Shown here in pieces: positions 1,500 through 4,199 of a stretch of DNA of 64,000 nucleotides. The DNA is taken from assembly GCA_044892505.1 (NCBI GenBank), contig CM097882.1:312294001-312358000 (forward strand), written 5' to 3'. The stretch comes from Schmidtea nova (lineage: Eukaryota). The notes below the pieces were generated by a model that was not told the DNA's origin, did not search any database, and saw nothing but the letters and a program-made list of their open reading frames with translations. Position 1 is the stretch's first letter. Each line of letters begins with the position of its first letter. The position numbers and the translations under genes are program-made.

Positions 1500-4133
1500 A
1501 TGACTCAATCACCTGCTGCTCAGTCAACTGCTGCTGATGTAATGACTCAGTCTATTGCAAATCAGTCAACTGTGACGAAGCAATATGAATTAGAAAACAT
1601 TCTCAAATATCAAATTTCTAACTTGCAATATTTTCAATCGATTTTGGATTATTTTTCTCAACTAAATGGTGGAAATCTCGCTACTGCCTCAGTTCTATCT
1701 GATGCGAATGCAAGTCAACAGAGTTCTTTCGATCAAGGATCTAAAATTTCTCCAAACCAATCTGATAATATGCCACTTTCTTATGCTGATATTGAGACTA
1801 AATTCACTAAATCAAAGGATTTACTGATTGTCAAGCGCCTGGATTCATTGGAGTCTCAATTTATGAATATGGCTGAAAAGTTAGATTATTTGGTTTCTTT
1901 TTTTAATGGCTCTGTTGATGATTTATCAGATTTTCCTAAAGTAAATGAAAATAATTTAAATAATAATCCTTTTAATAAAAATAAAGTTTTTGATATCAAA
2001 GATAAATTAATTGTAAATAATGTAGTTTTAGATAAATCAATCATTTCAGAATTTATTGAAAATAATATTGCTAAAATTCCTAATAGTTTAATTGATGTAA
2101 ATAATAAAATGTCTAATTCAAATAATAAATTTCTAAATAACCCTAATAAAGAGAATGTTAAACATTTTAATAATCCCAAAGATACATCTTCAATTGATTT
2201 GACTAACGATAAAATTATGCCAAATGAAAACATAGAAATAATTATTAAAAATAATAAAAAATCTGTTAAAATTATAGAACCTTATAAAACAACTAAAGAG
2301 AAGTATGATAAATTTGAATTTAAAAGTCTGGTTCGTATTTTAACGAAAAGGGAACGCCAGAAAATCTTGAATGCCTTCCCTGCTTTAATACAACTAATTA
2401 AAAAGAAAGAGTCACAGAGTAAATATTTTGAAATTAATAAATTTCTTTCGAGCAAAGATTTTAATGTGAATCACTTGAATTTAAATAATTTTGATTATTT
2501 TTTCTATAGAAATTGTAATCTTTGTGTATCTTTAAAATTGAACAACGCTCCTGTCATTTCATCAGCACCAAAACCTGTTGTTTTAAAAACTATTAAATTA
2601 ATTGACCATAATATCGTCAAAATAAATTCTGAAATCCCTGACTTTGTTCGAGCTCCAATGTCAATTCGAAGATTTTTATTCAATCTTTCGCACGATCTTT
2701 CAAACACTGTTTCCATCAAGGATGAGAAACACAGGGGAAATAAAATAAATAACATTCTTACTTCAATGAAACATAAACAACAATTACCAGATTATTTAAT
2801 AAAATCAAACATTAAATACGAAAATGGTGAGTTCTTATTATTAGATTTGACTAACGATAAAATCAAATTGAACGACGATAATAACTTGATAAAATGAAAT
2901 TTTTCTGAACTTACTAGAAGTCAGATTAAAAATCTTTACTATTCTTATCCTTCTCTTAAGGAAGTTTGTTTCGTTGAAAATCTTGAAACAAGATCATCAT
3001 CCGTTAGTAAAATTATCGAATCTTTAAAGTTAATTAATGAATTTCCAAAAAATATCATTTTTAAAGAGGGTAAATTTTATCAGTCTGATAAAAGAACAAT
3101 CTCACCTAGTAGTTCTCCTGACATAATGTTCAACCTAGGTCTTTTTAATTTGGCTAGTATGAGTAGAAAAGATTGTGAATTAAAATCCATTTTAGAGAAG
3201 ACTGGTTGTGACTTTAAAATAGTTGAAATAATATTCTACCTCAACTATTTAGGCTTGACTCAATCTTTAGAATTTTGCAAAAATCAAACTTATTCCGATT
3301 ATGTGAGGAATTACGTCTGTAATTGCTGCTTGATAAACTCACTCTGTAGTATTGCTGATGTTGATTCGCTTTCATCTGAAGATTTTGAGGGTTGGGCGAC
3401 CGAAATTGTTCAGAAAATCCCAGTTTCTTCCTATTACTTCAATAGCTGCCAGGAAAAGCTTTTAAAGCTGAAGCAATGGGACATTTCAACTAAAATCAAA
3501 AGAATCCATAACGTTATTTCACCTGAAATAATATCTTATTTAAATAACTTTCTTGACTCTGTAGACGTAAAATTTCCATCTAAGTCTCAACAACATAATA
3601 TTCTAATTAAATTAATGAAAGCTATCAATGACATTAAAATTTTTGATGACATACACGGAAATAAAGCAAAAAGACTTGTTTACTTTTTGCTAAGAGATGC
3701 CAAGAAATATTTGAATAAAAATCAACGATTCAGATTATTTGAATCGAGCAATAAATATTGCACTTCAGAGATGGAGAATATAATTTCAGTAATAATTGAG
3801 AACCTTACCAAAGTTACTGACCATGAAGTTACTACTCCTGAAATCACAGTTGAAGAAACGCCAATTGAAATAACTTGTGATCCTGAACCTATCGTCTTGA
3901 TTAAGGAAATAAACTGTTTAAAATGTAACAATATCATCGAAAAATGCATTCTTGTTAGAGATGGAACAAACGTCAACATCTGTGAAAGCTGTCTATTTGA
4001 CGCAATTACCTTTGAAAAGCCGATTCCTGAAGCTACTAATTCGGATATCGAAGAAAATATAGAAACAAATTGTAAGAAATCTTGTCCAAGACCTAGAAAA
4101 ACAGACAAGAAAACATCAACCAAAGCAAAATGA
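1500..4133 (+). pseudogene. ORF1 of copy 1, interrupted by premature TGA at 2895-2897 (TCA in the other copies)
   Basis: ORF-track pieces 1500..2897 and 3126..4133 are one frame; AAAATGAAAT versus AAAATCAAAT elsewhere. Confidence 0.9.
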
Positions 4134-4138
4134 AGATG

Positions 4139-4199
4139 TGTGCCTGCATCAGCTCAATCGTCTGCCATTCCCTCTAATGAGACTGATGCAGAGAGCACA
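4139..4199 (+). promoter_or_regulatory. Predicted RNA stem-loop just 3' of the ORF1 TGA (candidate readthrough stimulator); same in all 7 copies (12940-13000, 22749-22809, 31045-31105, 40859-40919, 49153-49213, 57787-57847)
   Basis: TGTGC/GCACA (5 bp) + CTGCATCAG/CTGATGCAG (9 bp perfect) + CTCA/TGAG (4 bp); pairing is read from the sequence, function is inferred. Confidence 0.6.

Follow-up and report, generated by a model that had tools for sequence, protein, structure and literature searches.

The element and its ORF1-ORF2 junction

The stretch of DNA analysed here (the window) comprises 64 kb of Schmidtea nova contig CM097882.1 (GenBank assembly GCA_044892505.1, positions 312,294,001 to 312,358,000 of the forward strand). 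It consists of a 253-bp tandem tRNA-Val(AAC) array with seven full copies, plus the ends of two more, of a 7.6-kb retrotransposon without long terminal repeats (a non-LTR element). The two open reading frames (ORFs) of this element share one frame and are split by a TGA, which is followed by a predicted stem. Below we argue that this stop is probably read through. The features at the junction are listed here for the first copy.

1500..4133, + strand: ORF1, 877 codons plus TGA, with a basic C-terminal tail; premature TGA in this copy, intact in copies 2-7
4128..4133, + strand: AAA TGA, final ORF1 codon and stop, proposed as readthrough site; present in 12/12 aligned families and also in the 13th, 918 genome matches
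4134..4139, + strand: 6-nt spacer with invariant G at +2; +1 varies among A, G and T, C being absent
4140..4152, + strand: 5' arm of the stem, opening with the GTG at which translation might alternatively restart
4153..4182, + strand: stem top and loop, variable in sequence with the length kept
4183..4198, + strand: 3' arm of the stem, with a 3-nt bulge at 4192-4194
4134..8750, + strand: ORF2 frame, 1538 codons, stop TAA, first ATG at codon 56
12932..12934, + strand: the same TGA in copy 2 (copies 3-7 at 22741, 31037, 40851, 49145 and 57779)

The junction reads ...GCA AAA TGA AGA TGT GTG CCT GCA... (4122-4148, TGA at 4131-4133). The first-pass annotation had described ORF1 and ORF2 as in frame and split by this TGA, which is borne out in all seven full copies: the distance from the ORF1 ATG to the first post-stop codon is 878 codons in 7/7. 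Its further figures (2640 nt between the ORF starts, M54, W36 and D39) are correct when counted from the GTG at 4140, and become M56, W38 and D41 when counted from the stop. The single TGA in a 2416-codon frame applies to six of the seven copies: copies 2-7 carry this TGA only, whereas copy 1 has a second one at ORF1 codon 466 (2895-2897).

The predicted hairpin (-23.8 kcal/mol, z -3.0) is matched in stability by 2/200 shuffled sequences, and an equally stable fold is seen in only 1/1135 other 66-nt windows of the element. The stem that is common to the families described below consists of GTGC/GCAC, a 3-nt bulge and CTGCATCAG/CTGATGCAG; it counts 13 bp and starts 6 nt past the stop. The fold claimed earlier is real, but the CTCA/TGAG top that was included in it turns out to be family-specific and lies outside the conserved part. 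Agreement among the seven window copies is weak evidence, since they are more than 99% alike (10-45 differences from copy 2 in 7251 nt).

Two other explanations of the stop were rejected. An assembly error is contradicted by contigs from four public runs, which cross the TGA without alternative letters, and by the 918 genome matches. As to an alternative code in which TGA means Trp or Cys, the 2416-codon frame holds 17 TGG and 58 Cys codons against one TGA.

Conservation across 13 divergent families

We searched the same genome using the protease region and four distant database proteins as queries, and fetched 54 ten-kb stretches that were picked by distinct open-frame length and place. An in-frame AAA-TGA-N6-stem was found in 47 of them; two are 5'-truncated, one has TAA, one has AGA, and three belong to a distant lineage. 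The stretches represent 13 families, with ORF2 about 51-95% and ORF1 28-80% identical. AAA-TGA, the 6-nt spacer, the stem and a long in-frame ORF1 are present in 13/13 family representatives, with about 750-970 open codons before the stop in the intact ones. The in-frame ORF1 is informative here, because picking by ORF2 frame length does not force the frame of ORF1. Out-of-frame homologs without a hairpin, named beforehand in the first-pass annotation as the finding that would speak against readthrough, did not appear among the families: 13/13 keep frame, TGA and stem.

In the 12 aligned families AAATGA, the +2 G and 10/13 core pairs never vary. The ORF1 stop is TGA in 13/13 families (the ORF2 stop is TAA in 12/13), and AAA precedes it in 13/13 families against 37/209 nearby upstream codons. 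A genome-wide count of the exact pattern yields 918 matches with TGA, two with VGA, two with other TRD codons and none for the control (TYN, TGC and TAC were left out of this count). The two stop-less matches, L156 (G000:C3:140688400-140698300) and L209, are single copies in which TGA has become AGA or CGA, leaving L156 with an open frame of 2505 codons. That such copies have not spread (2 vs 918) is consistent with selection against constant fusion, or they may simply be young. An older, decayed family (L213, L223, L225) has the same junction with the spacer AGCTGT.

Fourfold-degenerate sites were analysed in a codon alignment of 11 families. At a background identity of 40%, invariant columns amount to 4/9 in the first 25 codons versus 2/221 elsewhere, and of 1058 windows the 14 highest-ranking ones are all located on the hairpin. 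Synonymous sites are saturated elsewhere and frozen at the stem, which places the constraint on the nucleotides themselves, in two complementary arms. The predicted fold has a z of -2.5 to -4.2 in 11/11 families and is the most stable window of the element in 9/11; pairing is kept in 89.7% of the cells of the stem alignment, against 22-37% in slid controls. As to the check on fold and covariation suggested earlier, the fold is recovered in 11/11 families and two-sided covariation is seen in 0/17 pairs. Relative to an invariant GAGA, the stem top changes register. A conserved upstream element was not found between -120 and -16 (identity 0.32-0.47), nor was TGGGA in the last 100 nt (0/11). Kink-turn and hammerhead readings of the stem were compared by eye with their consensus and dropped. 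On this comparative evidence, the junction feature is real, old and under nucleotide-level selection.

Three rival explanations are considered at this point. The stem might be a non-translational signal (for RNA packaging, binding of the ORF2 protein, or an element acting at the DNA level), with ORF2 being reached through basal leakiness of AAA-UGA or an in-frame hop over the stop. Its near-total invariance and fixed 3-nt bulge resemble a protein-binding site, and PMC5009743 mentions the hopping of stops as an alternative to readthrough that lacks proof. We consider this very unlikely, as the stem stays exactly 6 nt past the stop in 13/13 families while the linker behind it varies in length.

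Secondly, the stop could be removed or bypassed at the RNA level, be it by A-to-I editing of UGA, by cis-splicing, or by a leader that is trans-spliced into the region of the hairpin. The conserved nucleotides could in principle be a processing signal, with a pyrimidine-rich loop followed by the invariant GAG, and flatworm leaders ending in AUG are known. However, the consensus fold leaves the stop unpaired, a conserved AG or GT is absent from it, and among the conserved AGs only GAG, the rarest acceptor, gives the right frame. The complementarity of the arms and AAA-TGA would also be left unexplained, making this route highly improbable.

Thirdly, the UGA could encode selenocysteine, with the stem acting like the redefinition element of SEPN1 and a selenocysteine insertion sequence (SECIS) in the 3' untranslated region (UTR). 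The exclusive use of UGA, the 6-nt spacer and the similar stem length would agree with this. Nonetheless, a loose scan for SECIS-like elements in the 650 nt after ORF2 gave a match in 1/11 families, an Rfam search of window positions 1000-9500 returned tRNAs only, and the UGA lies in a variable Lys-rich linker rather than in an active site. This explanation is accordingly extremely improbable.

Where ORF2 translation can begin

The first in-frame ATG of ORF2 is found at codon 37-258, which is past the catalytic His of the protease in 5/13 families and past its Cys in 3/13. A shared ATG start, or AUG reinitiation as a common mechanism, was rejected because this first ATG is unconserved among the 13 families. 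Restart at the overlapping AUG of A-UGA was rejected too: this AUG opens a different frame that closes after 15-24 codons, with no shared way back. The distance from the stop to WF, the first protease motif, takes six values (31-46 codons), all in frame, and five family pairs show purifying selection on codons 23-55 (pN 0.14-0.21, pS 0.45-0.78; proportions of nonsynonymous and synonymous differences). Together with the lack of a shared ATG this indicates that translation enters at or before the stem, either by readthrough or at the GTG.

Termination followed by reinitiation at this GTG, two codons past the stop (or at a nearby non-AUG codon), would be helped by the stem and yield a separate ORF2 protein starting with M-P-A-S, as in SART1 or L1. 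GTG is the sole near-cognate start common to 13/13 families and never varies at the family level, although it is the rarest Val codon in ORF2 (110/832). SART1 needs a downstream structure and L1 restarts unconventionally (PMC10275272, PMC5972666, PMC2881922); restart in caliciviruses tolerates non-AUG codons and poor context. Yet GTG forms the first three bases of the stem, so its invariance can be explained by pairing. Geometry also differs between the two routes: a ribosome with GTG in its P site would enclose the entire 5' arm (+7 to +19), whereas one with UGA in its A site would leave the 9-bp helix just beyond its edge. Moreover, restart does not account for TGA instead of TAA (13/13 vs 1/13), the G at +2 or the sense codons that fill the spacer in all families. 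As a rule, restart sites lie out of frame (PMC10275272). As compared to SART1 and caliciviruses, no AUG in the ORF2 frame occurs at or near the stop, and no conserved upstream tethering element (termination upstream ribosome-binding site, TURBS) was found; an ATG at codon 3 is seen in no family and in two single copies only. Finally, the distant lineage described below has no start codon right after its stop. We regard reinitiation as unlikely, though it is the main rival of readthrough.

Database proteins and a distant lineage

Among the ten closest ORF2 proteins in the database, five (36-52% identity) start with M-P-A-S/T/P, which equals the peptide of the 5' arm when read from GTG. Four of these keep the 3'-arm peptide 15 residues on, and P0006 has it 10 residues on. 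In the latter, the Pro and Gly codons imply C-G for U-A and a loop that is five codons shorter, as deduced from the protein. The 5'-arm peptide is absent in P0005, P0007, P0008, P0010 and P0014. Searches for junction DNA in other species gave 0/4 candidate stretches in viral contigs and 2/70 in metagenome contigs, both unrelated on inspection.

The distant lineage consists of three decayed copies (L157, L158 and L162, two of them 98% alike) in which neither a stop nor a hairpin precedes the protease. The ORF1 frame of L158 runs through the protease up to TGA-CTA-G, and L162 has TGA-CTT-G; both continue in frame with LVGRG and the next repeat. No start codon directly follows this stop, and +1 C is found only here. 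UGA-CUA is the classic type II readthrough motif (PMC3159437). L158 and L162 are 72% identical before the stop and 59% after it, with pS 0.84/0.76 and pN 0.17/0.26. With synonymous sites saturated, this is purifying selection on either side, so both sides were translated while the stop stood. In a tree of 27 rows, which lacks P0009 and P0013 as these matched too briefly or not at all, a neighbouring tandem copy, assumed to be of the same family as the distant lineage, falls outside the clade of 13 families among unresolved deep branches.

Protease domain and candidate cleavage site

Directly behind the junction ORF2 encodes a protease, followed by a possible cleavage site and two related repeats.

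4245..4700, + strand: Ulp1/C48-type cysteine protease (Pfam PF02902, E 6e-7); His99 (4428), Asp116, Gln159 and Cys165 (4626) invariant
4764..4769, + strand: Ala-Gly, candidate self-cleavage site after the protease; Gly-Gly in 11/13 families
4881..5828, + strand: two further repeats with the predicted helix-strand order of the protease, lacking the His-Trp and Asp-Cys-Gly motifs

The best Foldseek match of the protease model is yeast Ulp1 (1euv, E 1.4e-4), and the His, Asp, Gln and Cys of the first repeat are invariant in 18/18 sequences. A model of the first 620 ORF2 residues (mean predicted local distance difference test, pLDDT, 59) shows three repeats of one topology. With this topology but without the catalytic motifs, the second and third are likely dead copies of the protease, which could possibly serve as SUMO-binding or target-recognition modules. 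P0005 seems to have only one such repeat.

Viral processing proteases of clan CE prefer GG, GxG and AG. Gly-Gly is found about 45 residues past the catalytic Cys in 11/13 families, Ala-Gly in the window family and its sister, and GG or GxG also in P0001-P0007 and directly after the stop in the distant lineage. Clan CE includes Ulp1 as well as the processing proteases of adenovirus, vaccinia virus (I7L) and African swine fever virus (PMC12445089). These motifs suggest self-cleavage after the protease, with action on host SUMO conjugates as an alternative.

The ORF1 protein

ORF1 matches no Pfam family, no homolog in a word-index search and no fold in PDB or BFVD at E 0.001. Its core was modelled from copy 2 (11438-12931) with fair confidence (mean pLDDT 73.5), and some families have a Cys4 motif near the C-terminus. 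A profile search with ORF1 yields 27 matches, all unnamed. Eleven of these relatives are seemingly complete at the C-terminus: three end in Lys, one in Gln and seven otherwise. Judged by contigs of the same length, P0058, which ends in Asn, pairs with the ORF2 protein P0004, and P0061 (ending in Gln) with P0006.

Element class and its setting in the tRNA-Val array

The remaining features of the first copy complete the picture of the element.

810..1487, + strand: tandem tRNA-Val(AAC) array with 253-bp unit, the insertion target (tRNA search)
6513..7292, + strand: reverse transcriptase (RT; Pfam PF00078, E 1.6e-29)
8196..8747, + strand: CCHC zinc knuckle and restriction-like endonuclease (RLE) region; motifs read by eye, zf-RVT weak (E 0.067)
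8751..9104, + strand: 3' UTR, the end of which joins inside a tRNA-Val gene

As in RLE non-LTR elements, RVT_1 is followed by a CCHC knuckle and an endonuclease-like end (both by eye), and a Ulp1-like protease lies upstream of the RT; no family of the APE endonuclease type is found among the Pfam matches of the element. The motif at the ORF2 C-terminus, which we take to be that of the endonuclease, was assigned by eye and is unscored. The last 30 nt of the element agree with the published 3' end of LIN25_SM at 26/30 positions (compared by eye and of moderate weight, as the sequence is AT-rich). Judged by sequence, the element is likely a planarian RLE non-LTR retrotransposon of the R5/LIN type (NeSL clade in the wide sense), an assignment based on this 3'-end likeness; the protein matches include no named R5/LIN protein. 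The R5/LIN targets are defined in PMC4640811. The same paper names a Ulp1 domain for NeSL and Utopia-1_TSP, and its available passages are silent on ORF1 and translation. LIN25_SM and LIN15_SM of the R5/LIN lineage (PMC4640811) share with our element the RT, the C-terminal zinc knuckle and endonuclease, tRNA-gene targets and the 3' end. The targets, however, are new: arrays of Val, Pro, Gly/Asp, Thr, Gly and Leu tRNA genes.

tRNA genes flank 7/11 family representatives (F1539: one gene), the remaining ones being dispersed or without ARAGORN match. The sister families L091, L093, L101, L105, L153 and L155 lie in arrays of tRNA-Pro, Gly/Asp, Thr, Gly and Leu/Trp, and several other families are dispersed or end in (AAT)n runs. 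Target specificities have radiated within one genome, which holds at least 918 junction-bearing copies.

The element has hardly any 5' UTR of its own (window 1449-1500): the ORF1 ATG is about 12 nt away from array sequence, within GGTTCGATG, identical to bases 1-9 of the tRNA-Val gene. The junction with the array is located in the spacer in seven copies; in copy 7 it falls within the tRNA and is accompanied by a target duplication of 13 bp (55130-55150). The element may be transcribed from the array. Differences among copies 1-7 are shared blockwise between non-adjacent copies (ORF2 of copy 1 equals that of copy 4, and copy 1 has ORF1 blocks in common with copies 5-7), a sign of recombination or gene conversion within the array. 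One tRNA-Val (1045-1117) has a D-arm substitution and scores 57.5 vs 64.3 bits.

Readthrough as the most probable explanation

The families share one frame, a stop of fixed identity and context, nucleotide constraint on two complementary arms and intact catalytic residues, and lack a shared ATG. The readthrough proposed in the first-pass annotation is therefore supported by an in-frame TGA and stem conserved in 13/13 families. We consider it probable, with fair confidence, that ORF2 is made by programmed UGA readthrough as part of a polyprotein, which is likely cut by itself at the Gly-Gly motif. Most ribosomes would stop at AAA-TGA and release the ORF1 protein. A minority would pause at the predicted stem, provided that it forms in vivo, and decode UGA as an amino acid, giving an ORF1-protease-RT-endonuclease polyprotein. 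The Ulp1-type domain would then cut the Gly-Gly motif behind itself and thereby free the RT module. The purpose might be a fixed ratio of much ORF1 protein to little RT.

Several observations weigh against this explanation. C is the most permissive +1 base, and +1 is never C in the 13 families. The GTG at codon 3 equals the stop in invariance, with variants confined to 5 + 4 single matches and seen in no family, and both non-LTR cases that have been studied experimentally, SART1 and L1, use reinitiation. Two-sided compensatory changes in DNA amount to 0/17 pairs, where the nearly invariant arms are uninformative on pairing alone, and one core pair of the stem is mismatched in several families. 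The junction DNA is derived throughout from a single genome and a single ancestor. Beyond the clade of this genome, AAA before the stop is not universal given the Lys end of 3/11 ORF1 relatives, and no fusion of ORF1 to the protease is present among the 27 ORF1 matches. For the distant lineage the fold z is -0.3 to -1.8, none of which is significant, in three decayed copies only.

How non-LTR elements make their second protein is treated as an open question in reviews, which omit readthrough. The routes to ORF2 listed in PMC3894237 are stop-start coupling, internal entry and 2A; PMC5009743 mentions frameshifting for HeT-A and readthrough for MuLV (murine leukaemia virus). Readthrough would be a third route. 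We found no report of it for non-LTR elements in the openly searchable literature (a scope without subscription papers, the original descriptions of R5 and SART1, and Repbase, whose entries may comment on LIN ORFs; an earlier remark may exist). If true, a readthrough cassette would explain the position of the protease at the front of ORF2, and the ORF2 proteins of this lineage would be annotated with a wrong start, as their database entries take the GTG for the start. Such a cassette of 70 nt would work without +1 C, and 13 natural variants of it exist. The active RT module would then be a cleavage product, which is relevant to expressing these tRNA-specific elements.

Comparison with known recoding systems

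The type II sites of tobra-, peclu-, furo- and pomoviruses and of alphaviruses (PMC3159437) come close to the junction: they share the UGA, the A at -1, the G at +2 and +9, a downstream stem of 12 bp or more, twin peaks of synonymous conservation and a polymerase downstream. Differences concern the +1 base (not C), the 6-nt spacer (against 7-12 nt), the short loop and the absence of observed compensatory changes. The context fits xxA-stop-CGx-xxx-xxG of plant-virus replicases except at +1, where the C of type II sites is lacking. Stems at 6-12 nt past the stop are the rule in plant viruses, alphaviruses, MuLV and SEPN1 (PMC3159437).

The SEPN1 element also combines UGA, a 6-nt spacer and a long stem, and stimulates readthrough without SECIS; it differs in that no conserved SECIS-like element is found in our families. 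SART1 and L1 are likewise translated from bicistronic non-LTR RNA, and SART1 requires structure past the ORF1 stop. However, SART1 has an overlapping UAAUG with a real AUG and L1 a 63-nt spacer, whereas the overlapping AUG of our element is out of frame.

MuLV gag-pol resembles the arrangement predicted here in its abundant upstream protein, the in-frame stop before the protease and an RT that is made only past that stop. On the other hand, MuLV uses UAG, an 8-nt spacer, a pseudoknot and an aspartic protease, and it has LTRs; our element has a clan CE cysteine protease and no LTRs. The gag-pro-pol logic invoked in the first-pass annotation holds as an analogy of strategy, and of logic only, because ORF1 shows no match to a Gag fold. 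Tentatively, and with some doubt, it might be argued that this lineage has converged on the retroviral polyprotein strategy: UGA readthrough stimulated by structure would be combined with Gly-Gly self-cleavage by a captured SUMO-type protease. The site would have arisen twice, as in MuLV before the protease (AAA-UGA plus bulged stem), and as in alphaviruses after it (UGA-CUA ahead of the cleavage motif) in the sister lineage.

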